A DNA stretch of 35,063 nucleotides, taken from a bacterium. GTDB taxonomy: Bacteria > Bacillota_I > Bacilli_A > RF39 > UBA660. Made by a program: the position numbers and the translations under genes. The stretch's first letter is position 1. Each line of letters begins with the position of its first letter. The notes beneath the pieces were generated by a model, which worked only from the letters and a program-made list of their open reading frames with translations, was not told where the DNA came from and ran no database searches. Of the stretch, positions 3,413 through 31,848 are shown one piece after another. The stretch is from the NCBI GenBank assembly GCA_963589235.1, contig CAVAJX010000058.1, positions 1 to 35,063 on the forward strand, in the 5' to 3' direction.

Positions 3413-4759
3413 CTGTTTTGAATATTCTACAATAGTATACCAAGTAACCGGATCTATAACACCCGTCATCTCTTGATTAAATATTGACTGTATTTTCATT
3501 ACTGACCTTTCCATTAAGTCATCAAATATTCCAGATACTCTAACTCCAGGAATATTACCAGTTTGCTGACAAATTTTTAATAAAAACCTTTGTATAATTC
3601 TAACATCATCACCAGACATCCCTAGAGCTAATAATCTACCTTGAAACAACTCATCTTCATACTGAGCATACTCTTCTGGAATATTACGTATTGTCTCTCT
3701 ATACACCGTAACCAATTCATTCCAAGTATCAGCATCAACTACACCAGTAGCTGGCAGACCATATTTTTTCTGAAAGTTTATTACCATTGCCTTAGTATTA
3801 TCGTTAAAGACACTATTAAGTCTTAAACTTGGTAAATCTGGAGCAAAATAAGCAATTGTTAATAAAACATAATGTAATACTTGAACTCCTAAACCAACAT
3901 CTGAATACTTAAGTTCATTACCATAATCATAAATAGCCTCTTCTTCACCTATTCCTTCTGAATAAATATCATTAACCCTTTTAACAGCATTATAAATATA
4001 CTTTATTTTATACCAAGTAGAATAATCAACAATACCAGTAGGATTCAAGTTAAATATTTCTTGAAATTTTTTTACACTATTTTGCGTATAAACACCAAAG
4101 ACACCATTGATTCTAGGAATCTTAGGAATAGCTGGATAATTATTTGATATTCTATTTAATTCTCTCTGTATTATTCTTACCTTATCACCAGCATTACCAA
4201 GTTCAATAGGATAACCCGGATAAGCACCAAACACTTCCCCTGTCGGAGCATCTTCTTTTATATTAACATCATTACCATAATAATATTTTAATATTTCTAA
4301 AGGAGTTTTATTTTGTCTTGCCAAAGAGACACTTCCCCATTGCGATAACCCGTTACAAGTAGTAACTTTTCCATCACAATAAACAGCATTTAAAGGTTGT
4401 ATCTGACCAGTACGATAAATATAATTGTTAAATATTTGATCTACTTTTTTAGAAATAGTATCAAATACTTGTCTATTCTTAACAAATGACTGATCATATG
4501 CCGGTAAAGATGTAATATCAAATGTATAACCTTTACTAGGATACCATTCATTATAAATACGATTTAACGCAAATGATATTTGCGCAAGTATATTTGCCTC
4601 TATCGCACTATCAGGCCAAGTAGGATAAATTTCATTAGAAGCTACGTTTTTGATATAATCAACAAAAGGTAAACTTAAATTTTCAGCGGCCTCATCAGGA
4701 GCCCCTAAATGTACTACTATCTCAGTTGGAATAGTAGGATAATTAATAACACCATTCAT
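3404..4759 (-). CDS. SleC-like spore cortex-lytic enzyme: catalytic region plus three PG_binding_1 repeats
   Basis: The N-terminal 260 aa resemble the mature part of clostridial SleC, recalled from memory (P.EIVVH.G.P.......L.F.DYIKNVAS.EIY.TWP..AI.AN..A.ISF.LNR...EWY...GY.F.ITS..AYD..F...R..F; YCDG....C.GLSQWGS). Three peptidoglycan-binding repeats follow (GD.V..IQ..LN.I...YP.IP....G.F......V..FQ..F.L...G.VD..TW). The ATG is preceded by AGGTGA. Confidence 0.75.
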   Translation of the reverse strand: MNGVINYPTIPTEIVVHLGAPDEAAENLSLPFVDYIKNVASNEIYPTWPDSAIEANILAQISFALNRIYNEWYPSKGYTFDITSLPAYDQSFVKNRQVFDTISKKVDQIFNNYIYRTGQIQPLNAVYCDGKVTTCNGLSQWGSVSLARQNKTPLEILKYYYGNDVNIKEDAPTGEVFGAYPGYPIELGNAGDKVRIIQRELNRISNNYPAIPKIPRINGVFGVYTQNSVKKFQEIFNLNPTGIVDYSTWYKIKYIYNAVKRVNDIYSEGIGEEEAIYDYGNELKYSDVGLGVQVLHYVLLTIAYFAPDLPSLRLNSVFNDNTKAMVINFQKKYGLPATGVVDADTWNELVTVYRETIRNIPEEYAQYEDELFQGRLLALGMSGDDVRIIQRFLLKICQQTGNIPGVRVSGIFDDLMERSVMKIQSIFNQEMTGVIDPVTWYTIVEYSKQKE

Positions 4760-4761
4760 AA

Positions 4762-5166
4762 TTATTCACCTGCACCTTCAAATGAAGAACTTGTTATTGG
4801 AAACTGTATTGGTTGAATAATTTTTACATCATCAAAAATATATATAACATAATCTTTAGTCTCATTAGTATTTATATTTTTAGCAGTAATGTTATAAGTA
4901 GTAGAAACAATATCATCAGCAGACTCTACATCACTCTTCATTTCCTTTGTCGGTAAACTGATATTATCAATAATACCAGAAGAATCAGTAACACCTTCAT
5001 AAAAAACAACTCGTTTACCATCAATATCTTTATAAATAGTAATATCAACATCTTTCAAAGGAAAAGCCTGATTAGCAGTAAATACTTGAACTTTTAAAAG
5101 TCCAGAACCAGTATTTTGACTAGCAAAATCTGGATAATTTTTACTATCATACAAAGTATCATTCAT
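4762..5166 (-). CDS. SleC N-terminal pro-domain-like protein (carboxypeptidase-regulatory-like beta-sandwich), encoded as a separate ORF
   Basis: 134 aa from the ATG at 5166 (SD AAAGGGTG upstream); the track start at 5175 is a GTG. The segment GLLKVQVFTANQAFPLKDVDITIY...GVTDSSG resembles the N-terminal pre-pro region of clostridial SleC. Its stop lies 2 nt before the ATG of the catalytic ORF, in a different frame. Confidence 0.6.
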   Translation of the reverse strand: MNDTLYDSKNYPDFASQNTGSGLLKVQVFTANQAFPLKDVDITIYKDIDGKRVVFYEGVTDSSGIIDNISLPTKEMKSDVESADDIVSTTYNITAKNINTNETKDYVIYIFDDVKIIQPIQFPITSSSFEGAGE

Positions 5167-5182
5167 ATAAAACACCCTTTCT

Positions 5183-6013
5183 TTATATTATTAATTTTTG
5201 ACCAAGTGAAAGTAAATTACTAGTCAAATTATTTTTTCTTTTAATGGCATCTACTGTAGTATCAAACTTTCTTGCTATAGAATAAAGACTATCTCCAGCT
5301 TGAACAGTATAATAAGTATCACCAGTACTTGGAATTTTTAAAACTTGACCTATTGATAAATTATTAGTACTAAGATTATTAAGAGATTTTATTTCTGAAA
5401 CACTAGTATTATATTTTCTAGCTATTGAATAAAGATTATCACCTGATTTAACAGTATAAGTAATATAATCCTCCGGAACAACAAAGTCTTCACCATAACA
5501 CTCTTCAACTGAAGAAACACCTTTATTATCGTCTACTATTAAGACCTGACCTATTGATAATACATCAGTCTTTAAATTATTATCTTTTTTAATTTTATCT
5601 ACTGTAGTTCCAAATTTATTCGCAATACTATATAAACTATCACCAGCTTGAACAGTATAATTTACATAGTCTGACATTGTTGTATTATCACTATCATCCA
5701 TGTAACAAGGTATTCTAATTCTTTGTCCTATTGAAAGATTATTACTAGTTAAATTGTTATATCTCTTAATAGCGTCTACTGTAGTATCATATTTTTTTGC
5801 TATTGAATATAAATTATCCCCTTTAACAACAGTATAAATAACACATTCAGATGGATTATTTTCATCTCCTCTAGAAATAATAAGTACTTGTAATGGAACA
5901 ATATTATCATCAGATAAATTATTCAATTCCCTTAATTTCTGTACACTAGTGTTAAACTGTCTAGATATTCCATACAACGTATCACCTTTCTGAACTACAT
6001 ACGTATTATTCAT
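5183..6013 (-). CDS. Protein made of five LysM peptidoglycan-binding repeats, with no catalytic domain or signal peptide
   Basis: Five copies of the YTV..GD.LY.IA.K..T.V..I...NNL....L..GQ.L.I motif. The ATG at 6013 has GGAG upstream. The track start at 6052 adds 13 unsupported codons. Confidence 0.85.
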   Translation of the reverse strand: MNNTYVVQKGDTLYGISRQFNTSVQKLRELNNLSDDNIVPLQVLIISRGDENNPSECVIYTVVKGDNLYSIAKKYDTTVDAIKRYNNLTSNNLSIGQRIRIPCYMDDSDNTTMSDYVNYTVQAGDSLYSIANKFGTTVDKIKKDNNLKTDVLSIGQVLIVDDNKGVSSVEECYGEDFVVPEDYITYTVKSGDNLYSIARKYNTSVSEIKSLNNLSTNNLSIGQVLKIPSTGDTYYTVQAGDSLYSIARKFDTTVDAIKRKNNLTSNLLSLGQKLII

Positions 6014-6050
6014 AGAATTACTCCTTTCATTAATATATATGAAAAAAGTC

Positions 6051-6074
6051 AAAAAAAAACCCGTATTTTTCGGG
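6051..6074 (-). terminator. Rho-independent terminator after rsmA
   Basis: Minus strand reads CCCGAAAAATACGGG followed by T9 (plus CCCG 6060-6063, CGGG 6071-6074, A-run 6051-6059). Confidence 0.55.
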
Positions 6075-6081
6075 CAAATAA

Positions 6082-6885
6082 CTATTTAGTACATAATTCA
6101 TTAGCTAAATCAACAAATACCTTAACAGGTAAAGCCTCAGCTCTTACAGATAAATCATAGCCAGACTTCTGTAAAACCATATTAACTTTTTCTAAATCAT
6201 AACCTACTAAATTATTCTTAATAGTCTTTCTTTTTTGTTGAAAACTATCTCTAACTAATTTCTCAAAAAATTGACCATCTAAAAGTTCATACTTATTTTC
6301 TTTTTCTTTAAAAGAAATAATAACACTATCTACATTAGGTACTGGAACAAATTCATTCCTAGAAACCAAGAACTCCTTATGAGCATCAAAATAATACTGT
6401 AATAAAACAGATATTGAACCATATGACTTATTACCAGGACCAGTTGTAAATCTATCACCAACTTCTTTTTGAACCATCATAACTATTCTTTTAAATTTCA
6501 ATTTGCTATCTATAAGTTTCAAAATAATTGGCGTTGTTATATAATAAGGAACATTACTAACAAAATACAAATTTTCATAATCATATTTTGAAACATCACC
6601 ACATAAATCAGAAGTTAAAAAGTCTTTAAACAAAACTTCTACGTTATTTAGACCCTCTAATCTACTATAAAGTTCATCTTTTAAATCTTCATCTATTTCA
6701 TAAGCTAGTACATTATCAGCTCTTTTAGCAAGTTCTCTAGTCATAATTGCGCCACCTGGACCAACTTCAATAACTAAAGATTTTTCTTTAATATCCGCAA
6801 CATCTACAATTCTTTTAACTACACTTATATTCTTCAAAAAGTTCTGTCCAAACTTTTTCTTAAAATCAACATTATATCTTTCCAT
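6082..6885 (-). CDS. rsmA: 16S rRNA (adenine1518/1519-N6)-dimethyltransferase RsmA/KsgA
   Basis: 267 aa with FGQNFL near the N-terminus, the VIEVGPG SAM motif and the NVPYYITTPI motif. Confidence 0.92.
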   Translation of the reverse strand: MERYNVDFKKKFGQNFLKNISVVKRIVDVADIKEKSLVIEVGPGGAIMTRELAKRADNVLAYEIDEDLKDELYSRLEGLNNVEVLFKDFLTSDLCGDVSKYDYENLYFVSNVPYYITTPIILKLIDSKLKFKRIVMMVQKEVGDRFTTGPGNKSYGSISVLLQYYFDAHKEFLVSRNEFVPVPNVDSVIISFKEKENKYELLDGQFFEKLVRDSFQQKRKTIKNNLVGYDLEKVNMVLQKSGYDLSVRAEALPVKVFVDLANELCTK

Positions 6886-7647: not shown

Positions 7648-8259
7648 TTACACGTCCAAATTATAATTAACTTTCACAATAGCCTTAAAATTTTTAGAAG
7701 AACTACCTATAACAGTCTCCTCATCAGTCCATATTTTAAGTCTATAATTATCACAAAATTGTTTAGTATCTTCAGTTGTATTTCTAAAAACACCAGAATA
7801 TAAAATCATACTATTACTTGAATTATCAGTATTAAAAATATTATTTTCTAAAGTAGAAGTAAAATAACTAGGATAATTATCAACAGGAACATATCTTCCA
7901 TTAACAAGTTTTTCTAAATATATTCTAACTTCATTATCACCAAGTAAAGCATAATCATCATCTTTAACTCTTTCTAACAACACTTCATAATTAATAGTAT
8001 TATTTAAAGACACATTAGAAATAACTTTAAAGTCTAAATAACTACTCATACCAATTCCTTCTGAGTCTTTCATCGGTAAAGTTCCAATTAAAGAAATACC
8101 ATCATCGTCAGTATCATAATCAATATAAACAATGTCTTTAGAATTTAAACTAGAATTAGGTTCAACTAAAACAGCATAACTAACACCAACTATCGCAACT
8201 ATTAAAATAGCCAGTCCTAGTATTGACAATAATAATTGTTTTGACAAAGTATTATCCAT
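7648..8259 (-). CDS. Secreted/anchored protein, paralog 3 of 3 (candidate SipW substrate, TasA/camelysin-like?)
   Basis: 203 aa with an N-terminal hydrophobic signal/anchor ending GVSYAVL. It shares motifs with the two upstream ORFs: LPMKDSEG, YLDFKV, NYEV, RIYLEK, NYRLKIWTDEE, VKV. Confidence 0.55.
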   Translation of the reverse strand: MDNTLSKQLLLSILGLAILIVAIVGVSYAVLVEPNSSLNSKDIVYIDYDTDDDGISLIGTLPMKDSEGIGMSSYLDFKVISNVSLNNTINYEVLLERVKDDDYALLGDNEVRIYLEKLVNGRYVPVDNYPSYFTSTLENNIFNTDNSSNSMILYSGVFRNTTEDTKQFCDNYRLKIWTDEETVIGSSSKNFKAIVKVNYNLDV

Positions 8260-8277: not shown

Positions 8278-8865
8278 CTACTTATCTTTTCCAAATACAT
8301 CTACTTTTACAGAAACATAATAAACATTATCAGGAACAACAGTACTCTTTTCATCTAAAAATACTCTAAGACGGTAATTATCAACTGAATCACGTTTCTT
8401 AGTATCTTCTAATAGTACCATAGAACCAGCTGGAGTTGAAAGTTTACTACTCTTAGTAAGACCTTTAAAAACAGAAGGCCCAAATACTTTACTAAAAGAA
8501 CCAGAATTTTGTTTTTCTAAATAAAACTTAATCATATCACCAGTAACATTAGATTCATCTTCAATAATAGAAGCTGCTATTTCATAATTAATTTCATCAG
8601 AATCTTCCAACTTAGTATTAACAACAAAATCAAAATATTGTTCACTGGCCTTTCCAGGTGAATCTGTTAAAGGGACTAAATTAGTAAACTTAAATGTATT
8701 ACTATCAGTATAACTCATAGTAATTACACCAGGATTATATTCATCAACAGTATCATCCTTTTTATTACTTAAAAGACCAAATGCTAATACCACTATCAAA
8801 ATAACTAAAACACTAATTAATATAATCCAACAAATAACTTTTTTTGATACACCCTTTTTATCCAT
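8278..8865 (-). CDS. Secreted/anchored protein, paralog 2 of 3
   Basis: 195 aa with an N-terminal TM. Shared motifs: VPLTDSPG, YFDFVV, NYEI, KFYLEK, NYRLRVFLDE, VKVDV. Confidence 0.55.
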   Translation of the reverse strand: MDKKGVSKKVICWIILISVLVILIVVLAFGLLSNKKDDTVDEYNPGVITMSYTDSNTFKFTNLVPLTDSPGKASEQYFDFVVNTKLEDSDEINYEIAASIIEDESNVTGDMIKFYLEKQNSGSFSKVFGPSVFKGLTKSSKLSTPAGSMVLLEDTKKRDSVDNYRLRVFLDEKSTVVPDNVYYVSVKVDVFGKDK

Positions 8866-8879
8866 ATAAGTTAATCCTC

Positions 8880-9467
8880 CTAAGATAATTTCTTAACTTT
8901 TATTATACCATTAAATTCTTTTTTTGTATCACTTAAAAAATAAGTTTCATCTAACCAAAGACGTAATTTGAATTCTTGCTTCTGATTTCCAAAAATTGTA
9001 CCAGAATATAATAACTTACCAGATGCACTACTCTTTGAAACTCTTAAATTTCGATATGTCATAACTTCATTACCAGAATAATCTTTAAAAGCTTTTCCAT
9101 CTCCATCAGTCAAATAAACTTTTACATAGTTTGGATCAATAGTATCATCGTTTTCTTCACTCTCTAAATAAACTTCATAATTACTAGAAATATTCTTATC
9201 ACCAGTACTTTCTACTGAAAAAGATATTTCATTCAGAATATCATCATCCACATTAGAAGCATCAAGAGTTCTACCAGATTCATCTGTTAATGGTAATTTA
9301 TTAGATATATGAATACTATTAGTACCAGTTAAACTAACACTATTAGAATTAGAGTTAAATTTATCTTTTGTTAAAGCAATCACAATAATAACCAAAAAGA
9401 AAAAAACAATAGACATTACAAATAAAAACGTATTCTTATTAAAATATCTAGACATTTTATAGTTCAT
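8880..9467 (-). CDS. Secreted/anchored protein, paralog 1 of 3
   Basis: 195 aa with an N-terminal TM. Shared motifs: LPLTDESG, ISFSV, NYEVYLE, KVYLTD, EFKLRLWLDE, IKVKK. The start could instead be the ATG at 9455. Confidence 0.5.
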   Translation of the reverse strand: MNYKMSRYFNKNTFLFVMSIVFFFLVIIVIALTKDKFNSNSNSVSLTGTNSIHISNKLPLTDESGRTLDASNVDDDILNEISFSVESTGDKNISSNYEVYLESEENDDTIDPNYVKVYLTDGDGKAFKDYSGNEVMTYRNLRVSKSSASGKLLYSGTIFGNQKQEFKLRLWLDETYFLSDTKKEFNGIIKVKKLS

Positions 9468-10558: not shown

Positions 10559-12094
10559 TTACATATCTTGAAGAAATTTATCTTTATCTATTCTTTGGAA
10601 TAAAACCTCTGGTTGTCCTAATTTGTATTTATTATCTTCTACATATTTAAATTCAGGAACTTCATTATTTATCTGTTTTAAAATTTCTTTACTTGTATTA
10701 GTAATAAATGGCTCTAATAAAAGTGCACATACTCTAATAGCTTCTAATAAGTTATAAATTACTGTTTCTAATCTATCTTTCTTAGCCTCATCTTTAGCTA
10801 ATATCCAAGGAGTAGTATCATCTATATATTTATTACTAGCTCTTAAAACATTCATAATTTCAGTTAAAGCATCACTTACTTGATAATCATCCATTTTAGC
10901 AACTAATTTACTATCTAATTCATTGATACTATCAATAAAAGGCTTATCTATATCTTCATATACTTTCTTGTTACAAACAGTACCTGAAAAATACTTATTA
11001 CCCATTGAAATAGTTCTTTGAACTAAGTTACCTAAAATATTTGCTAAATCACTATTGATTTTTTCAATAAGAAGTTCATATGTAATATTACCATCATTAG
11101 CAAAAGGAATTTCATGTAATAAATAATATCTAACTGCATCAACACCAAATTTCTCTACTAATTCATCAGCATAAATAACATTACCTTTAGATTTACTCAT
11201 CTTATCATTATTCATTAATAACCAAGGATGTCCAAAAATTCTCTCTGGTATTTCTAAACCTAGTGACCATAAGAAACAAGGCCAATAAATTGAATGGAAA
11301 CGTACTATATCTTTACCAATTAAATGTAAGTTAGCTGGCCATAGCTTTTTAAATTGTTCTGTTTGACTATCAACATCATATCCAATATTAGTAATATAGT
11401 TAGTTAATGCATCAAGCCATACATAAACAACATGTCCTTCATCAAAAGTAACTGGAATACCCCAAGTTAATGATGTTCTTGAAACACATAAATCTTGTAA
11501 ACCAGGTTTAATAAAGTTATTTAACATTTCATTTCTTCTAGAAACTGGTTGAATAAAATCAGGATGTTCTTCTATATATTTTTCTAACTTATCTTGATAT
11601 TTACTTAATCTAAAGAAATATGCCTCTTCTCTTGCTTCATGAACTTCTCTATTACAGTCTGGACATTTTCCATCAACTAACTGAGACTCAGTCCAAAAAG
11701 ACTCACAAGGAGTACAATATAATCCTTTGTATTCACCTTTATAAATATCTCCTGAATCATACATCTTTTTAAAGATATGTTGAACAACTTCTTTATGATG
11801 AGGATCTGTAGTTCTTACAAATTTATCATAACTAGTATTCATTAAATCCCAAATACCTTGAATTTGTTTAGCTATACCATCAACAAATTCCTTTGGTGAT
11901 ACACCAGCATCTCTAGCTTTTTCTTCAATTTTAATACCATGTTCATCAGTACCAGTCTGAAAATAAACATCATATCCATGTTGTCTTTTAAATCTAGCAA
12001 TTGAATCTGCCAAAACGATTTCATATGTATTACCTATATGTGGCTTACCAGAAGTATAAGCAATAGCAGTAGAAATATAAAACTTTTTACCCAT
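10559..12094 (-). CDS. metG: Methionine--tRNA ligase (short form without the C-terminal tRNA-binding domain)
   Basis: Class I HIGN signature (KPHIGNTYE), the KMSKS motif and the zinc knuckles CTPCE...CPDC. The ATG at 12094 is preceded by GAAGGAGG. A T-box leader lies upstream. Confidence 0.93.
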   Translation of the reverse strand: MGKKFYISTAIAYTSGKPHIGNTYEIVLADSIARFKRQHGYDVYFQTGTDEHGIKIEEKARDAGVSPKEFVDGIAKQIQGIWDLMNTSYDKFVRTTDPHHKEVVQHIFKKMYDSGDIYKGEYKGLYCTPCESFWTESQLVDGKCPDCNREVHEAREEAYFFRLSKYQDKLEKYIEEHPDFIQPVSRRNEMLNNFIKPGLQDLCVSRTSLTWGIPVTFDEGHVVYVWLDALTNYITNIGYDVDSQTEQFKKLWPANLHLIGKDIVRFHSIYWPCFLWSLGLEIPERIFGHPWLLMNNDKMSKSKGNVIYADELVEKFGVDAVRYYLLHEIPFANDGNITYELLIEKINSDLANILGNLVQRTISMGNKYFSGTVCNKKVYEDIDKPFIDSINELDSKLVAKMDDYQVSDALTEIMNVLRASNKYIDDTTPWILAKDEAKKDRLETVIYNLLEAIRVCALLLEPFITNTSKEILKQINNEVPEFKYVEDNKYKLGQPEVLFQRIDKDKFLQDM

Positions 12095-12121
12095 AATATC
12101 ATCCTCCTTCAAATTTAATAC

Positions 12122-12354
12122 CAAAAAAAAATATTATAAACATAAGGACGAGAAGTCTCTCGCGGTACCACCTTATTTTATAATACTTCTGATATTATAC
12201 ACTCAAGTAGTTAACGCCTACCTACGATTATACCTACATATCGATATAATAGTTCAAAAGCCATACTTAAATTAATTTTTATACTCATTCCCACCAAACA
12301 GAGTTCTCTTAATAAAAATTTAATTCAAGCTCTTCATCACAACATTTAAGATAT
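12122..12354 (-). promoter_or_regulatory. T-box leader (tRNA-sensing riboswitch) controlling metG
   Basis: The minus strand carries the conserved T-box sequence GGTGGTACCGCG (plus 12161-12172). Upstream are a GTGATGA/AGAGA stem-I region and a candidate specifier GGGAAUGAG, with AUG (Met) at 12288-12286. Downstream, hairpin segments run into a U-rich tract (plus A-run 12123-12130). I could not resolve the expression platform cleanly by eye. Confidence 0.7.
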
Positions 12355-17692: not shown

Positions 17693-18532
17693 TCACTTCC
17701 CATTATGATATTCTTTATAAATAATAGACTTAGCTACATTTCTCTCTTTTGCCACTAATTTTATAGCATCTTTTTCCGAAATACCATCTTCTAAATAAAT
17801 ATTGACATGTTCAATAATAGTCATATCACTATAATCAACTTTTTCATGATTACCATCAACAATAAGAACAAATTCCCCTTTTAAACTTGACGCTACAGGT
17901 ATCAAGTTTTCAATATAATCTCTATATATTTCCTCATGAATTTTAGAAATCTCCCTAGAAATAGATATTTTTCTATTACCAAGTACTTCTAACATATTCT
18001 TCAATGTATTTTCCAGTCTATGAGGTGATTCATAAAAAATCATTGTATACTTATAATCCTTCAAGCCAAGTAATTCTTTCTTTTGTTTAGAATCCTTTGC
18101 ATTTAAAAAACCATAAAATAAGAAAGGTGAAGGAGAAATACCAGAAGATGTTAAAGCAGGTACAAAAGCTGTAGCGCCAGGTAAACTAATAACATTATAA
18201 TTATTAGAAATAACTTCATTTACAATTACATATCCTGGATCACTGATTATAGGAGTACCCTGATCAGTAACAAGACCAATATTCATACCTTTAGACAATT
18301 GTTCTACAACATAAGATTTAACCTTATCTTCATTAAATTCATGACAACTAACTAATTTCTTTTTAATATCATATTTACTTAATAACTTACCAGTTTCTCT
18401 AGTATCTTCACATAAAACTAAATCCACTTCCTTTAGTGTATTTAAAGATCTTATAGTAATATCGTCCAAATTACCAATGGGCGTAGGTATTAAATATAAG
18501 CTTGCTGTATCATTATAACTAATTTGACTCAT
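17693..18532 (-). CDS. rsmI: 16S rRNA (cytidine1402-2'-O)-methyltransferase RsmI
   Basis: 279 aa. Tetrapyrrole-methylase-fold motifs: LYLIPTPIGNL.DIT.R....L.....CEDTR and SDPG..V. It occupies the position equivalent to B. subtilis yabC. Confidence 0.88.
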   Translation of the reverse strand: MSQISYNDTASLYLIPTPIGNLDDITIRSLNTLKEVDLVLCEDTRETGKLLSKYDIKKKLVSCHEFNEDKVKSYVVEQLSKGMNIGLVTDQGTPIISDPGYVIVNEVISNNYNVISLPGATAFVPALTSSGISPSPFLFYGFLNAKDSKQKKELLGLKDYKYTMIFYESPHRLENTLKNMLEVLGNRKISISREISKIHEEIYRDYIENLIPVASSLKGEFVLIVDGNHEKVDYSDMTIIEHVNIYLEDGISEKDAIKLVAKERNVAKSIIYKEYHNGK

Positions 18533-22038: not shown

Positions 22039-23721
22039 TTAATCAATTTCAACAATATCACCAAATAGATTTATCGCATCATTAGATATTATATCACTTT
22101 TTTCACTTTCATCCAATAACTCTTCCTTTGGTTCTTCAATAATTTTATATGAGCCACCAGACTTAATTACACTTATATAATTCTTTTTTTCTGTTTCCCA
22201 GTCAGAATCACTTATAATAGCAATAGCATAATTGGTATTACAAATTTTATTATAAATTTCTGTAATTTTCTTTATATTAGAAATATTTTGTTTAACTATT
22301 GAATCATATTCGTAGCTAAGAATAAACCCATCAGAACTAGCAGCACGAACATTTGCATCCAATAAAGCACATGCAGCAAATCCTATTTCGGTATCGAAAG
22401 TATAATCATTAAATATATTCATATTATCAATTGTTGATTTTAAAATATTTTTATTAGCTTGAGCCATAATATTATTTACTCTAGCCTTCATAATATCATC
22501 AATATTAAGAGGAACCAAACTTTTTACAGCAAAATCAGTAGAAACTATATTAGTTTCATTGCTGCGAACATTAGTTTGTTTTTTTTCTGCTGTATCTTTA
22601 TTTTCAACATTTTTATTACTTTCAGTTTTAACATTAGACTCAGGCAAAATTATTTCCCGGGAAATAATTTTAGTTTCACCAGCAGAAATTTTATTACTAC
22701 AAAAATCAACTAAAAACATCTCAATATAAATTCTAGGATTATCAGCTCGTTTAATTTCAAACAAATTATTATTTATTTCATTTACTAAAGAAAGTACTAC
22801 ATTAACAGAATAATCACACTTAGTATTATTAACATAATAATCCACAACAATATTACGTAAATAATTCATCAGTTGAACAATAACTTGAACCAAGTTTTTA
22901 CCTGAATCATTATAATTATCCAAAGATGATAATACATTAGGAATATCAGCTTCAAAAATACATTTGGAAAATTTTTCCAATTCATCTTTAGTTATAATGC
23001 CATTAAGCTCTGCAAAAGACTCCTCCGTAATTTTTTTATCAGTATAAGAACTAAGCTTATCAAGTAATCCAAGTGCATCTCTCATACCACCATCACAAAA
23101 AGATGAAATTTCATTTAAAACTTTAGAATCAATTGAAATATTTTCTTTTTCCACAATGCTTTTTAAACGATTAACTATAGAGCTTTCTGAAATTCTTTTA
23201 AATGAAAAGCATTGACAGCGTGAAATAATAGTTTCAGGAACTTTTTGTGGATCAGTAGTCGCTAAAATAAATATTGCGTGTTCAGGTGGTTCTTCTAATG
23301 TTTTTAACAATGCATTAAACGCACCAATTGAAAGCATATGAACTTCATCTATTATATAAACTTTATATTTAAGTTCAGCTGGAACTAACGAAATTTTACT
23401 CTTTAATTCTCTAATTTCATCAACACCATTGTTACTGGCTGCATCTATTTCTATAATATCAACACATTCCTTTTCCATTGAATGAATACAATTATCACAC
23501 TCATTGCATGGACCAGACTCAGTTGGATTACTACAATTTACAGCTCGAGCAAATATTTTAGAAATAGTTGTTTTACCAGTTCCTCTAGGTCCAAAAAACA
23601 TATAAGCATGTGTAAATGTTTTATTAATAATCGAATTTTTTAAAGTAGTAACAATAACATCTTGTCCAACTACATCATCAAAATTACTAGGTCGATATTT
23701 TCTATATAATGCATGATACAT
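22039..23721 (-). CDS. dnaX: DNA polymerase III subunit gamma/tau
   Basis: 560 aa. It has YRP..F..VVGQ, Walker A GPRGTGKTT, a zinc module C..C..C, DEVHML and SRCQ motifs. Confidence 0.95.
   Translation of the reverse strand: MYHALYRKYRPSNFDDVVGQDVIVTTLKNSIINKTFTHAYMFFGPRGTGKTTISKIFARAVNCSNPTESGPCNECDNCIHSMEKECVDIIEIDAASNNGVDEIRELKSKISLVPAELKYKVYIIDEVHMLSIGAFNALLKTLEEPPEHAIFILATTDPQKVPETIISRCQCFSFKRISESSIVNRLKSIVEKENISIDSKVLNEISSFCDGGMRDALGLLDKLSSYTDKKITEESFAELNGIITKDELEKFSKCIFEADIPNVLSSLDNYNDSGKNLVQVIVQLMNYLRNIVVDYYVNNTKCDYSVNVVLSLVNEINNNLFEIKRADNPRIYIEMFLVDFCSNKISAGETKIISREIILPESNVKTESNKNVENKDTAEKKQTNVRSNETNIVSTDFAVKSLVPLNIDDIMKARVNNIMAQANKNILKSTIDNMNIFNDYTFDTEIGFAACALLDANVRAASSDGFILSYEYDSIVKQNISNIKKITEIYNKICNTNYAIAIISDSDWETEKKNYISVIKSGGSYKIIEEPKEELLDESEKSDIISNDAINLFGDIVEID
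22647..22670. promoter_or_regulatory. Perfect Noc-binding-site (NBS) type palindrome inside the dnaX coding sequence
   Basis: AAATTATTTCCCGGGAAATAATTT is identical over 24 bp to the intergenic copies at 24701 and 25058. The core TATTTCCCGGGAAATA lies at 22651-22666. It encodes the palindromic peptide K-I-I-S-R-E-I-I in the dnaX linker. Confidence 0.8.
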
Positions 23722-24212: not shown

Positions 24213-24238
24213 ATAATCACCCTATAAAAACAAAAAAA

Positions 24239-24310
24239 GTGCACATGAGAATTTAAATGTTAAGGCTGCTACCTTCCGATCCTGACCTGATTCCACCGTT
24301 CTCATTGCAC
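24239..24310 (-). ncRNA. ffs: Small (4.5S-like) signal recognition particle RNA
   Basis: Minus strand reads GUGCAAUGAGAACGGUGGAAUCAGGUCAGGAUCGGAAGGUAGCAGCCUUAACAUUUAAAUUCUCAUGUGCAC. It contains the universally conserved domain IV motif CAGGUCAGG..CGGAAGG.AGCAGCC with the GGAA tetraloop. The 5' and 3' ends pair (GUGCAAUGAGAA / UUCUCAUGUGCAC). A T7 run follows immediately. Confidence 0.85.
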
Positions 24311-24316
24311 AAATTA

Positions 24317-24345
24317 ATTCTAATATATATATTTTATTTTGTAAA
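24317..24345 (-). promoter_or_regulatory. Putative sigma-A promoter of the SRP RNA
   Basis: Minus strand reads TTTACA (24345-24340), a 17-bp spacer, then TAGAAT (24322-24317). A further 6 nt leads to the G at 24310 that starts the predicted RNA helix. Confidence 0.55.
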
Positions 24346-24385
24346 CATAATTAATAATTCTACACAATAATTAATTAAAATATTC

Positions 24386-24405
24386 AATGTTTCACGTGAA
24401 ACATT
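24386..24405. promoter_or_regulatory. parS: parS site 1 (ParB/Spo0J centromere consensus, 16/16)
   Basis: 20-bp perfect palindrome AATGTTTCACGTGAAACATT. The core TGTTTCACGTGAAACA lies at 24388-24403. Confidence 0.85.
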
Positions 24406-24504
24406 ATAGTAAACAGTGCAAAAACATTTTCTTATTTATAAAAAAAGAAATAAATTAAATATACATAAACAAAATTGCTTATAGTTAAATATAAATCTAT
24501 TTTA

Positions 24505-24520
24505 TGTTTCAAATAAAACA
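24505..24520. promoter_or_regulatory. Decayed parS-like site (13/16)
   Basis: TGTTTCAAATAAAACA sits inside a 10-bp-arm AT-rich inverted repeat (24500-24525). All three differences from parS are G/C-to-A changes in the central CACGTG. Confidence 0.35.
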
Positions 24521-24643
24521 TAAAAAAAGTACTATTAAACAAATTATATTATTCAAAAATAAGCATACATTTATCTGCGATATTTTAATTTAATTATATA
24601 TAAAATTAAAGCAATAATTAGCTGATCTTAATAAAATAATACT

Positions 24644-24663
24644 AATGTTTCACGTGAAACATT
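24644..24663. promoter_or_regulatory. parS: parS site 2 (16/16)
   Basis: AATGTTTCACGTGAAACATT (a 22-bp palindrome with flanks). The core lies at 24646-24661. Confidence 0.88.
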
Positions 24664-24700
24664 AAATAAATAATTTAAAATAGCTAGTTTCAACTACATT

Positions 24701-24724
24701 AAATTATTTCCCGGGAAATAATTT
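24701..24724. promoter_or_regulatory. NBS (Noc-binding-site consensus, 16/16), partner of parS site 2
   Basis: AAATTATTTCCCGGGAAATAATTT (a 28-bp perfect palindrome with flanks). The core TATTTCCCGGGAAATA lies at 24705-24720. Its centre is 59 bp from the centre of parS 2. Confidence 0.85.
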
Positions 24725-25001
24725 AAGCATATTTAAACCGAAATTATTACATTAATTATTAAAATTAAAATAACAAATCAAATATATTTTCTTATAAAAA
24801 TAACCAATAAAAAAAAATAATATTAATATTTAAAATATAAAATTGATTAAAAATCAAAGTTTAAATATAAATATTAAAAAAAATACCATATTTGATATAT
24901 ATACCATACACACATAAACTAAATTATGGTTTCTATTATTTTTAATCAATAATAAATTTTTTATTTACTAACAAATATTACTTATATCAGTATACATTTT
25001 C

Positions 25002-25021
25002 AATGTTTCACGTGAAACATT
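25002..25021. promoter_or_regulatory. parS: parS site 3 (16/16)
   Basis: AATGTTTCACGTGAAACATT (a 22-bp palindrome with flanks). The core lies at 25004-25019. Confidence 0.88.
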
Positions 25022-25057
25022 GGATAAAAACATAATAATAATATCTTTTAGTAGCCT

Positions 25058-25081
25058 AAATTATTTCCCGGGAAATAATTT
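25058..25081. promoter_or_regulatory. NBS (16/16), partner of parS site 3
   Basis: AAATTATTTCCCGGGAAATAATTT (a 28-bp perfect palindrome, CTAAATT...AATTTAG). The core lies at 25062-25077. Its centre is 58 bp from the centre of parS 3. Confidence 0.85.
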
Positions 25082-25246
25082 AGATGAATTATAAAGTAAA
25101 TTTGCATATGATCATAAAAGTTTAAATATATTTATATAGTATTACACTTATAAACTTTAAAGAACTAAATTGTAATTTTTAGCATTTTTAAACAACAATA
25201 TTTCATTATTTAATATCAAACATTACTATTAAATTATAATATTGCT

Positions 25247-25264
25247 ATGTTTCACGTGAAACAT
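25247..25264. promoter_or_regulatory. parS: parS site 4 (16/16)
   Basis: ATGTTTCACGTGAAACAT. The core lies at 25248-25263. Confidence 0.85.
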
Positions 25265-25300
25265 TAAATAATCAAATAGATGAAACAAATCTAGTTATCA

Positions 25301-25323
25301 AAATCATTTCCTAAAAATAATTT
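25301..25323. promoter_or_regulatory. Decayed NBS, partner of parS site 4
   Basis: AAATCATTTCCTAAAAATAATTT. The flanks and the ATTTCC half are retained. The central CGGG is eroded to TAA with a 1-nt deletion. It sits at the expected offset of about 56-57 bp. Confidence 0.5.
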
Positions 25324-25426
25324 AAACAATTAACAATGAAAAAATACGTATCGTGTAAAAACTAAAAGACATATAAATTAAGTACAATTATTAATATAGT
25401 AAAAGCTAAATTAATAAATTGATATC

Positions 25427-25446
25427 AATTTTTCAAGTGAAACATT
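25427..25446. promoter_or_regulatory. Decayed parS site 5 (14/16)
   Basis: AATTTTTCAAGTGAAACATT. It has two G/C-to-T/A substitutions in the left half-site. The core lies at 25429-25444. Confidence 0.5.
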
Positions 25447-25483
25447 ACGATTTTACTAAACAAATAAGTAAAAATACACATGT

Positions 25484-25506
25484 AAATTATTTCCCGGGAA
25501 ATAATT
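25484..25506. promoter_or_regulatory. NBS (16/16), partner of decayed parS site 5
   Basis: AAATTATTTCCCGGGAAATAATT. The core lies at 25488-25503. Its centre is 59 bp from the centre of parS 5. Confidence 0.8.
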
Positions 25507-25651
25507 CATCACTAAAACAAAAAATAAATACTGATACATACATAGTAAAAAAAATATTAAAATAATAAAAATAAATTCTAAATTGATCAGAAAATATTCA
25601 AAAAACTTTTTTCCACAAGTAAAATTATGTAAAATTTATCGATAAAAACAC

Positions 25652-25677
25652 AAAAAAGAAAGGCACAACGCCTTTCT
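25652..25677 (-). terminator. Rho-independent terminator after gyrA
   Basis: Minus strand reads AGAAAGGCGTTGTGCCTTTCT followed by T6 (stem 25657-25664 / 25670-25677). Confidence 0.75.
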
Positions 25678-25696
25678 TAAATTTTAGTTTTATAAA

Positions 25697-28120
25697 TTAA
25701 TTATCTTCTTCATCCTTTGTTACTAAAGCAACAGTAGAAACTAATTCGTTATTCTTTAAATTGATAAGTCTAACACCTTGAGTAGCACGTCTTAAAAGTG
25801 AAACTTGATTCAATGGCATTTTCATAATAGTACCATTATCAGTAACAATTGCAATATCATATTCTTCACTTTCAATACGCTTTAAAGCAACCATAGTACC
25901 ATTCTTTTCAGTAATATTTAATGCTTTAACACCCTTACTACCTCTATGAGTTAATCTATATTCATCAATAACGGTTCTTTTACCATATCCTTTATCAGTA
26001 ACAATTAAAATTTCTTGCCCTGGATTAACAACTTCTGATCCAATAACATAACTTCCATCTAAATCAATACCTTTTACACCAGAGCTACTTCTTCCCATAG
26101 GTCTTATTTCACTTTCAACAAAGCGAACCATTCTACCATTATTAGCTCCAATAGCAATTTCATCATTTCCACAAGTCTTTCTCACAGAAATTAACTCATC
26201 ATTTTCCTTTAATACAATAGCAATTTTACCAGATTTTCTAATATTATTAAATTCTGAAATATCAGTTCTCTTAACTATTCCATTCTTAGTAGCAAACACC
26301 AAATATTTAATATCATCAGACGAAGCAGAAATTTCCACAATCGAACTAATGTTCTCGTCTTTATCCAATTGTAGTAAATTTATTATTGGAAGACCCTTTG
26401 ATTGCCTTGAAAATTCAGGAACTTCATAACCCTTCATACGATAAACTCTACCCTTATTAGAGAAGAACAATATATAGTCATGAGTTTTCATAGAAATTAA
26501 CTGTTCCACAAAATCTTCTTCATGAGTAGTCATACCATTAACACCTACACCACCACGATTTTGCGTACGGTAAGTATCAGATCTTAATCTTTTAATATAA
26601 CCATTACGAGTTAATGTAATAATTACATCTTCATTAGGTATTAAAGACTCATCCTCAATATATTCAATAGCAGTCATATCAATATTTGTACGACGTTCAT
26701 CTCCATATTTTTCCTTAATTTCTAATAATTCATTTTTAATAACCTCTAAAACTCTAGAATCACTAGCTAAAATGCCACGTAACTCTTCAATTAATTTTAA
26801 TAAGTCATTTAATTCATTTTCAATTTTTTCACGTTCTAAGCCGGTTAAACGACGTAATTTCATTTCTAGAATAGCATTAGCTTGAATTTCACTTAACTTA
26901 AAGTTATTCATCAAACCAGTTCTAGCCTCATCATCAGACTTAGCAGCTCTAATTAATTTAATAACAGCATCAATATTATCAAGTGCTATCTTTAAACCTT
27001 CTAAAATATGAACACGTTTTTCAGCAACGTCTAAATCATACTTAGTTCTTCTAATAATTACTTCGCGTTGGAAATCAATATATTTAACTATAATATCCTT
27101 TAAACCTAAAGTCTTTGGAACCCCTTGATCCAACATTAAGAATATAATTCCATACGTAGTTTGGAATGAAGTATGCTTATATAATTTATTTAAAACAACT
27201 TGGGCATTTGCATCTTTCTTTAAAGTTATTGTAATTTTAATACCATTCTTTAAATCCGAATGATAATCAGCTATACCCTCTATTGTCTTATTATGAACAA
27301 GTTCAGCAACCTTATTTTTCAACTCTAAAGTATTTACACCATAAGGAACTTCATCAATTATTATACATTGCTTACCATTTACTTCTTCAATTGTAGCCTT
27401 ACTTCTGATAGTAATAGTACCTCTACCTGTTTCATAAGCTTTCCTAATACCAGCATTTCCTAAAATTGTTGCGCCAGTAGGAAAATCAGGTCCTTTAATA
27501 TATTGCATTAATTCATCAAGCTCAATATCATGATTATCAATATAAGCAACACAACCATCAATTACCTCTCTTAAATTATGAGGTGGTATATTAGTAGCCA
27601 TACCAACAGCAATACCAGTAGTACCATTAACTAAAATGTTAGGGAAACGTGAAGGTAAAACTTCAGGCTCTCTTTCACTTTCATCAAAGTTTGGACTAAA
27701 ATTAACCGTATTTTTATTAATGTTTCTAAGTAATTCCAAAGAAATTTTTGAAAGACGAGACTCAGTATAACGCATTGCTGCGGCACCGTAACCCTCAATA
27801 TTACCAAAGTTACCATGACCATCAACTAACATATATCTATATGAGAAGTCTTGAGCCATTCTTACCATTGCCTCATATATACTAGAATCACCATGAGGAT
27901 GATATTTACCCATAACATCTCCAACAATTCTAGCACTCTTTTTATGAGGCTTATCAGGAGTATAGCCAGACTCATACATAGAATAAAGAATTCTTCTGTG
28001 TACTGGCTTTAAACCATCTCTTAAATCAGGAAGTGCACGAGCAACGATAACACTCATAGAATACTCTAAAAAAGAATCTTGGACTTCTTTAACAATATTA
28101 TTTTTTTCTAATCTATCCAT
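25697..28120 (-). CDS. gyrA: DNA gyrase subunit A
   Basis: 807 aa. It has the [16 protein letters not shown] motif, the catalytic region AAMRYTE and a C-terminal beta-pinwheel repeat region. Confidence 0.97.
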
Positions 28121-31306: not shown

Positions 31307-31753
31307 TTATTTATTTTTTCGCTTTCTCATAATTAAATCTAAGCGAGAGGCTCTAGATATCTGATTTTCAATTGTTCTATACGAACATGGAACAATTATT
31401 TCCTTAAAATTATCAAATATTATCTTTGTATTAGTATTATCTACTTTTTCAAAACTTTTAACTCTACTTAAAGATATCCAAGCACAGTCTTGTGCTGAAG
31501 GTGAAGTCGTTGGAAAAACAACTATATTATTAGTATCTTCAACGATAATAGGAACTTTATACTCCGCTCCTAAAATAGATCTAGCACTGTCTTTACGACC
31601 ATTATAAGTACTACCAAAATACTTACAAGACTCTTCCATTATTTTAAATGGTGTTTCATCAATGATATATCTATCATCATCTTCATAAACTAAACTACTT
31701 TCTTCTTCATTTGGAACAACAGCTAATGTTCCTTTACTAAATTCATATTTCAT
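31307..31753 (-). CDS. comK: ComK-family competence transcription factor homolog
   Basis: 148 aa from the ATG at 31753. By eye it aligns to B. subtilis ComK: GT.AV.P; P..IM..SC.YFGS.Y.GRK......LG...K.PI.V....N...FPT.S.....C.WI....V..F.K; and the ISY..ENQ-like PCSYRTIENQ. The track start at 31846 is an unsupported extension. Confidence 0.7.
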   Translation of the reverse strand: MKYEFSKGTLAVVPNEEESSLVYEDDDRYIIDETPFKIMEESCKYFGSTYNGRKDSARSILGAEYKVPIIVEDTNNIVVFPTTSPSAQDCAWISLSRVKSFEKVDNTNTKIIFDNFKEIIVPCSYRTIENQISRASRLDLIMRKRKNK

Positions 31754-31848
31754 CTTATTTCCCCCTATAGAAAACGACTTTTTCCTCGTTTTCATACAAA
31801 ACATAACAAATTTTTTTATCAAAATTTGTCGAAAAATGTAGAACAAAC

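Follow-up and report, generated by a model that had tools for sequence, protein, structure and literature searches.

The 35,063-nucleotide contig CAVAJX010000058.1 (GenBank assembly GCA_963589235.1; GTDB lineage Bacillota_I, Bacilli_A, RF39, UBA660), referred to here as the window, carries between gyrA and the signal recognition particle (SRP) RNA gene a gap in which sites for two paralogous ParB-family proteins are interleaved, namely the parS centromere of ParB (Spo0J) and the Noc-binding site (NBS). Based on the sites themselves, their persistence at one syntenic position in relatives and the presence in a conspecific genome of both a canonical ParB and a Noc-derived paralogue, we propose that this gap is probably an origin-proximal dual loading zone for two ParB-family clamps dependent on cytidine triphosphate (CTP). 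ParB and Noc are the textbook pair for a duplicated DNA-binding clamp that gained a new site and a new job, and they have been described at separate, unpaired sites; here both site types are interleaved at one conserved address, while the Noc-type protein has lost the defining mechanistic feature of Noc. The components of the system are known, but their arrangement and the architecture of the paralogue are new: full-text literature searches found no published interleaved parS/NBS arrays, origin-restricted NBS or Noc without a membrane-targeting sequence.

Interleaved parS and NBS palindromes beside gyrA

The gap holds four perfect and two decayed parS sites together with three perfect and one decayed NBS (Table 1). 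The parS sites fit the 16-bp consensus palindrome TGTTNCACGTGAAACA, with exact copies of the 16-mer TGTTTCACGTGAAACA starting at 24388, 24646, 25004 and 25248 and a two-mismatch copy at 25429; the 20-bp form AATGTTTCACGTGAAACATT starts at 24386, 24644 and 25002. The NBS fit the palindrome ATTTCCCGGGAAAT and match the established Noc consensus exactly over the 16-bp form TATTTCCCGGGAAATA, copies of which start at 24705, 25062 and 25488, with the 24-bp form starting at 24701 and 25058 and a 23/24 copy at 25484. A fourth perfect NBS 16-mer of the window lies inside dnaX. The chance expectation is 0.01 per motif, and none of 100 dinucleotide-preserving shuffles reached the observed count. The first-pass annotation of the window had already described these palindromes with their extended 20- and 24-bp forms, had given centre-to-centre parS-to-NBS offsets of 59, 58 and 59 bp, and had read the two palindromes as ParB and Noc site types; we find the same coordinates and offsets, and the assignment agrees with the established consensus sequences. 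Every copy that it listed is real, although its list omitted the dnaX NBS at 22651 and a three-mismatch parS at 24505. Its further remarks that the gap is gene-free and that the spacers barely align while the sites stay intact also hold. Neither a tRNA nor an Rfam family was detected in positions 24322-25696, where the longest open reading frame (ORF) does not exceed 48 aa and promoter-like matches are not enriched; the spacers show 41% ungapped identity against the 37% expected from composition, as compared to 90% for the parS 16-mers, and Tandem Repeats Finder detected no tandem repeat in the gap.

The two-mismatch parS at 25429 is a perfect parS at the homologous position of the sister genome L060, and L118 has an intact NBS where the window has the decayed one at 25300-25323; both are therefore true former sites. 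In 17 of 68 related loci an NBS occupies the same relative position in dnaX, where it is read as (I/N)ISREI in 15 and, in another frame, as NYFPGNN in two. As the site is kept in two frames within a poorly conserved part of the protein, and the peptide flanking it is not conserved, selection appears to act on the DNA site rather than on the peptide. Taken together, the intact counterparts of decayed sites in sisters and the frame-independence of the dnaX site argue for selection at the DNA level.

The array lies 9-10 kb from the dnaA/rpmH intergenic region, and the origin-proximal placement proposed in the first-pass annotation is borne out by the gene order. With the origin between rpmH and dnaA and all genes running on the minus strand away from oriC, dnaA is followed by dnaN, a ComK-family gene, recF, gyrB and gyrA (25697-28120, minus strand), which adjoins the gap. 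Past the gap lie the SRP RNA gene, tadA, dnaX, ybaB and recR, and then bofA, holB, mfd, spoVT, metS (with a T-box), ksgA, yabG, spoVG and yabP; the DNA is 26% GC, the origin region is B. subtilis-like, and the sporulation genes of the host are spoVT, spoVG, yabP, yabG and bofA. Every parS found in the ~52 kb around oriC sits within the gap: no parS or NBS with up to two mismatches was found in 20.6 kb on the other side of oriC and, unlike in B. subtilis, spo0J contains no parS.

We then examined relatives by scanning one genome per species for the pattern parS-N{29,59}-NBS, so that each locus was ascertained on a pair 44-74 bp apart. The scan yielded at least 120 stretches, almost all from metagenome-assembled genomes (MAGs) labelled as uncultured Bacilli, 'Erysipelotrichaceae', 'Tenericutes' or 'Mycoplasma'. 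In approximately 115 of the 120 listed loci the mixed cluster occupies the gap between gyrA and tadA/dnaX, with GyrA 55-99% identical to that of the window, confirming the expectation that it would persist at this syntenic position. Across the listed loci, the gap contains 7.6 sites per kb and the DNA outside it 0.2 per kb, 75 loci have at least two parS plus at least two NBS, and 20 show three or more consecutive alternations. Adjacent sites are of unlike type in 434 of 634 cases, where permutations that take the ascertainment into account give 325 +/- 11, and within 200 bp there are just 22 NBS-NBS neighbours versus 369 unlike-type adjacencies. The clade consensus extends to 18 bp for parS and to ~24 bp for NBS, of which a 22-24-bp palindrome is conserved. 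In L045 and L019 the array is a genuine tandem repeat whose unit contains a single site of each type, the units being 125 bp (10.7 copies) and 82 bp (8.1 copies), respectively. One listed locus, L089 (CP091739.1, the 'Clostridium sp. nC27_bin.11' chromosome), has a coding density of only 0.42 under translation table 11, with gyrA and dnaX fragmented and the parS/NBS cluster still between the fragments; an alternative genetic code was considered and rejected, as a long-read assembly rich in frameshifts accounts better for the broken ORFs.

The first-pass annotation also regarded the fixed parS-to-NBS spacing as a conserved design, and this part did not survive the comparison. The 58-59 bp offset is constant within the window genome alone; offsets in relatives range from 22 to ~75 bp (including 58/68, 57/70, 48/35, 49/27, 44/32, 29-30 and 61) and differ even between close relatives (46/52 in L057, 49/35 in L044). 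Raw per-locus distances look periodic, with peaks near 24, 35, 48, 58 and 68 bp and a Rayleigh nR2 of ~24, but helical phasing at 10.5-11 bp was rejected, with nR2 falling to 1.8 after related spacers were collapsed and an independent metagenome sample giving no signal. Most simply, the modules of this genome would share their offset through descent from one duplicated [parS-spacer-NBS] unit that has since acquired few indels; spacing may still be constrained locally, though no data require it. More generally, we posit that these arrays grow by tandem duplication of such a unit and then diverge, with selection keeping both sites, and that the 58-59 bp offset of the window would have been inherited through this process. 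The notion that the NBS half-unit of the tandem arrays is itself a diverged parS half-unit was rejected, with flank similarity at z <=2 relative to shuffles.

We also considered metagenomic stretches found with the NBS 16-mer alone and hence blind to parS (at least 120 stretches; the counts here are for the matches listed). Of 53 NBS in DNA with a GC content of 40% or more, none has a parS within 100 bp, as against 28 of 89 in DNA below 30% GC; in this sample the coupling of the two site types is a trait of the low-GC clade. Among the low-GC NBS loci 49 of 55 (89%) are syntenic with the ~50-kb origin region formed by the window and its conspecific contig L132 (see below), the recurrent positions being the gap, dnaX and rsmI. 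Canonical NBS, on the other hand, number 40-70 and are scattered across half to two thirds of the chromosome around the origin (PMC5540599). The rsmI sites are recurrent intragenic NBS in a TP_methylase homologue ~6.5-7 kb from the array, seen in eight low-GC metagenome loci (L140, L160, L170, L191, L236, L237, L242 and L256); the rsmI ORF of the window (17693-18532) has none. In a different lineage and genomic context, positions 35-549 of L013 (CAZXKH010000075.1, 41% GC, 'uncultured Clostridia') hold three perfect NBS and one perfect parS within 520 bp, adjoining glycine-cleavage and lipoate-ligase genes.

A canonical ParB and an atypical Noc orthologue

Searches with the GyrA and DnaN of the window returned exact matches on MAG contigs whose gap is the same or nearly so, and these conspecific contigs all end just beyond rsmG; no exact match to the DnaA of the window was found. 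A contig reached through a homologue of RsmG, L132, shares with the window a 4.8-kb overlap in which 97.9% of nucleotides are identical, marking it as conspecific, and encodes rsmG, a 439-aa ParB-family protein, ParA (262 aa) and ParB (300 aa) in the canonical rsmG-noc-soj-spo0J order. The first-pass annotation had suggested looking for a ParB and a Noc-type paralogue near rsmG and had made its proposal contingent on the latter; L132 supplies both, with contrasting specificity residues. A search for the GERR motif found no ParB genes in the 120 array loci, and the paralogues are therefore not adjacent to the array. In more distant species the Noc-type proteins occupy the same operon, and comparison of these with specific array-bearing assemblies found no common accession.

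Jalal et al. (2020, PMC7383237) established that R173 and G201 of ParB specify parS, whereas Q173, R201 and one permissive lysine at 179 or 184 of Noc suffice for NBS specificity. The 300-aa ParB has the R173 and G201 equivalents (GKSRSHITNM...AGHAR) and is thus of the parS type; its N-terminus, RALGRGLEELF, includes the ParA-stimulating LGRGL peptide, and its best match in the PDB is B. subtilis Spo0J (3e-63, versus 2e-49 for Noc). The 439-aa paralogue, with GKSQSAVANKLRLLSL...SERHAR, presents Q, K, S and R, including the equivalents of Q173, K179 and R201, and is of the NBS type. Its top hits are Noc of Geobacillus and B. subtilis (2e-61), ahead of every ParB, among which 4umk comes first at 8e-53 and B. 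subtilis Spo0J (6sdk) reaches 4e-48. Pattern matching recovered the QK[A/S]R set in 118 of its 120 closest relatives; in the two that it missed, visual inspection still shows the Q and the K. When 192 core residues are placed in a neighbour-joining tree, the paralogue family groups with Bacillus and Geobacillus Noc (80% bootstrap) and the 300-aa protein with Spo0J (85%). The CTP motifs GERR and ENLQR are conserved in the paralogue and invariant in the alignment of its relatives, and an AlphaFold2 model shows a C-terminal dimerisation domain of a helix and two strands (residues 399-438). The N-terminal peptide through which ParB interacts with ParA has no counterpart in the paralogue.

In other respects the paralogue is not a canonical Noc. 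It begins MNTETKDEVVYLYLDDIIPNRFQPR, with residue 4 aligning to Noc residues 23-26, and so starts ~22 residues later than Noc of B. subtilis or Geobacillus; an in-frame stop lies five codons upstream, and the short N-terminus is common to all 120 closest relatives. Because of this late start, the 10-aa N-terminal amphipathic membrane-targeting helix is absent from the paralogue and from these 120 relatives. In Noc this sequence is needed for liposome binding (PMC8429893) and, as cited in the same paper, for nucleoid occlusion. Hence the membrane tethering that the first-pass annotation associated with Noc is not to be assumed for this protein, whose sites are moreover concentrated at the origin. 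Between its DNA-binding and C-terminal domains is a linker of ~190 aa, predicted as disordered (AlphaFold2 per-residue confidence, pLDDT, below 50 at residues 203-392), which contains the conserved short motifs NYGKVTIAPP, KFINYGEID, ADLDNLLNI, ITPAEAIVK and DYFxP. Against the NCBIfam model TIGR04285 (nucleoid_noc) it scores 283.8 bits, below the cut-off of 315, with the ParB of the same genome at 244.2 bits; where databases name it, it is just a ParB/RepB/Spo0J family protein. Canonical Noc proteins elsewhere in the samples do have an F-rich N-terminus. The 29% GC metagenome contig L188, from another low-GC lineage, for instance encodes, at 3936-4862 and 5615-6478, a Noc of canonical length with an F-rich N-terminus (MKFPFL) and a KR-rich C-terminus, and a ParB beside it. 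A low-GC Noc with an F-rich N-terminus indicates that the loss of membrane targeting is specific to the long-linker family, and not general in low-GC genomes.

Predicted function and competing explanations

In light of these observations, we propose that the parS sites load the canonical ParB as a CTP clamp serving ParA and, by analogy with other ParB proteins, SMC, while the interleaved NBS would load the Noc-derived paralogue encoded beside soj-spo0J. We infer binding, clamp loading and spreading for both proteins, such that the two clamps would nucleate within the same ~1.3 kb and spread over one origin domain. The loss of membrane targeting, the motif-bearing linker and the origin-restricted sites together suggest that the paralogue has a changed, origin-specific role, perhaps as an origin-domain factor beside ParB that recruits a partner, anchors the origin or couples the origin to division or replication control. 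A bolder version, which we entertain as a possibility rather than favour, is that the Noc orthologue of this clade was repurposed, losing its anchor, gaining a motif-studded disordered linker and having its sites collapsed onto the parS centromere, with the outcome being a kinetochore-like two-clamp complex that recruits an origin partner. The clade in question comprises large numbers of uncultured, small-genome, low-GC gut Bacilli.

Several points weigh against the proposal of a dual loading zone. NBS are present in only four of the eight gaps of a small unbiased subset, from which it follows that interleaving is frequent and not universal, and since the genome scan with at least 120 matches was ascertained on a parS-NBS pair, its counts do not give prevalence in the clade. 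Both binding-protein genes are known from the conspecific contig, outside the window. The paralogue has S or A in place of the usual K at position 184, and its NBS specificity is therefore a prediction. Finally, the paralogue may bind membranes through another part of the protein. That an ordinary Noc uses the NBS to load and spread, attaching the origin region to the membrane and keeping the Z-ring from assembling over it, with the co-location of parS being incidental, would fit the orthology of the paralogue to Bacillus Noc, its canonical gene position, its intact CTP motifs and NBS-type residues, and the additional intragenic NBS, which are also found in B. subtilis. However, the helix on which Noc function depends is missing here and in all 120 relatives, with a stop five codons upstream of the start, the nucleoid_noc score is below threshold, the low-GC NBS are confined to the origin in the great majority of listed matches rather than covering half or more of the chromosome, and parS and NBS alternate far above chance. 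We hence regard this explanation as unlikely, and nucleoid-wide, membrane-tethering occlusion as less likely than an origin-specific role of the paralogue.

A slightly more doubtful alternative is that the paralogue modulates ParB, acting between parS sites as a roadblock, an insulator or a competitor for CTP or DNA, and thereby sets the size of the partition complex. The location of NBS mostly between parS, with NBS-NBS neighbours rare, the significant alternation and the absence of the ParA-interacting peptide are all consistent with this; but there is no phasing or fixed distance of the kind that would suggest a defined contact between ParB and the paralogue, in many relatives the cluster consists of parS alone and the NBS lie in dnaX or rsmI, at a distance of 1-2 kb, and a static roadblock is unexpected of clamps that leave their nucleation site once loaded. 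The residue at position 184, together with the predicted status of the pairing between the paralogue and the NBS, might instead be taken to mean that another factor binds the CCCGGG palindrome, or that one ParB of dual specificity binds both palindromes. Given that the two paralogues carry contrasting residue sets sufficient for each specificity (PMC7383237), that the ParB has both R173 and G201, and that the match to the Noc consensus is exact over 16 bp, we consider this very improbable. Least probable of all is that the array is a neutral or selfish repeat without function, whether a hitch-hiking tandem repeat or one resembling repetitive extragenic palindromes or miniature inverted-repeat transposable elements, as the first-pass annotation had allowed for. 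Tandem amplification is evident in relatives and MAG assemblies often break in the array, as such a repeat might predict. Yet, apart from a few conserved positions inside genes, copies are found in a single syntenic gap despite the divergence of GyrA, the sites are perfect while the spacers are randomised, the 20 kb across oriC has none, and no parS-NBS pair was found in 2.9 million viral contigs.

When compared to known systems, the array resembles the chromosomal ParABS of B. subtilis (Spo0J/parS) and the parS clusters of Caulobacter, Corynebacterium and Myxococcus in its 16-bp, origin-proximal, clustered parS and in a cognate ParB with the R/G residues and the LGRGL peptide and a ParA encoded beside it on L132. 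Unlike in those systems, all parS found here lie in one gene-free gap of at most 1.4 kb, and are not scattered in genes or spo0J, and they are interleaved with sites for a second ParB-family protein. With the Noc/NBS systems of B. subtilis and S. aureus it shares the identical 16-bp NBS, some of them intragenic, and an orthologue in the same operon position with the Q/K/R residues and CTP motifs; it differs in the paralogue, which has no membrane-targeting helix, a long disordered linker and a sub-threshold score, and in NBS that lie within ~20 kb of oriC and alternate with parS. Iterated plasmid centromeres, such as the sopC tandem repeats of F, find a parallel in the head-to-tail arrays of 76-127-bp units carrying ParB-family sites in relatives, whereas here each unit has two sites for two paralogues, the setting is chromosomal and the repeats of the window have diverged beyond detection. 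In B. subtilis RacA-ram and RefZ-RBM are origin-proximal site sets of sporulation and division factors. The likeness to these lies in a DNA-binding protein other than ParB with sites concentrated around oriC, in a host with sporulation genes; the protein families are nevertheless unrelated, the present one being a ParB/Noc paralogue with sites interleaved with parS. The system offers a case in which the repurposing, or reversal of function, of a neofunctionalised protein can be put to the test, and its DNA lends itself naturally to the question of whether two different CTP clamps with neighbouring loading sites help, outcompete or obstruct one another. In hundreds of uncultured gut genomes the origin-proximal centromere would also be recognisable by its signature, a gyrA–tadA gap with a mixed array of parS and NBS.

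Feature coordinates and neighbouring observations

Table 1. Sites and boundaries of the array in window coordinates
Feature	Position	Strand	Remark
Gene-free gap with the whole array	24322..25696		between SRP RNA gene and gyrA, ~9-10 kb from dnaA/oriC
parS-1, perfect 20-bp palindrome AATGTTTCACGTGAAACATT	24386..24405		~65 bp upstream of SRP RNA start
Decayed parS TGTTTCAAATAAAACA, 3 mismatches, still palindromic	24503..24522		16-mer at 24505
parS-2, perfect 20-bp palindrome	24644..24663		
NBS-1, perfect 24-bp palindrome AAATTATTTCCCGGGAAATAATTT	24701..24724		59 bp from parS-2, centre to centre
parS-3, perfect 20-bp palindrome	25002..25021		
NBS-2, perfect 24-bp palindrome	25058..25081		58 bp from parS-3
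parS-4, perfect 18-bp palindrome	25247..25264		
Decayed NBS AAAATCATTTCCTAAAAATAATTT, one central base lost	25300..25323		perfect in L118
Decayed parS TTTTTCAAGTGAAACA, 2 mismatches	25427..25446		perfect in sister L060
NBS-3, perfect 16-mer inside 23/24 palindrome	25484..25507		59 bp from decayed parS
Unpaired intragenic NBS in dnaX	22651..22666		codons ~352-357, read as ISREI; dnaX spans 22039-23721, minus strand
gyrA intrinsic terminator	25656..25678	-	origin-side array boundary
SRP RNA gene with promoter-like site TTTACA-17-TAGAAT	24223..24345	-	far array boundary; gene itself 24223-24321

The MAG contigs of this region break recurrently at two places. Several end exactly in the rsmG–noc intergenic region, which is ~300 bp long (L132 10640-10942, L007 1-342, L009 1-386), A/C-rich and marked by repeated aaccaa/aagc words, and the ends of others (L004, L005, L060 and L118) fall within the parS/NBS array. 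Short-read assembly seems to fail in both regions, and at the latter locus the arrays account for the recurrent breaks.

Elsewhere in the window, the ComK-family gene between dnaN and recF (31307-31846, minus strand; Pfam ComK, 5e-43) is kept at the same position across the clade, with 32-88% identity in related loci; in B. subtilis this position is that of yaaA. A T-box leader (Rfam RF00230, 102 bits) at 12141-12349 on the minus strand precedes the methionyl-tRNA synthetase gene (10559-12124). Three tandem paralogous genes on the minus strand (7648-8259, 8278-8865 and 8880-9467) code for proteins of 195-203 aa with 21-27% mutual identity, each with an N-terminal hydrophobic segment and none with a Pfam match.

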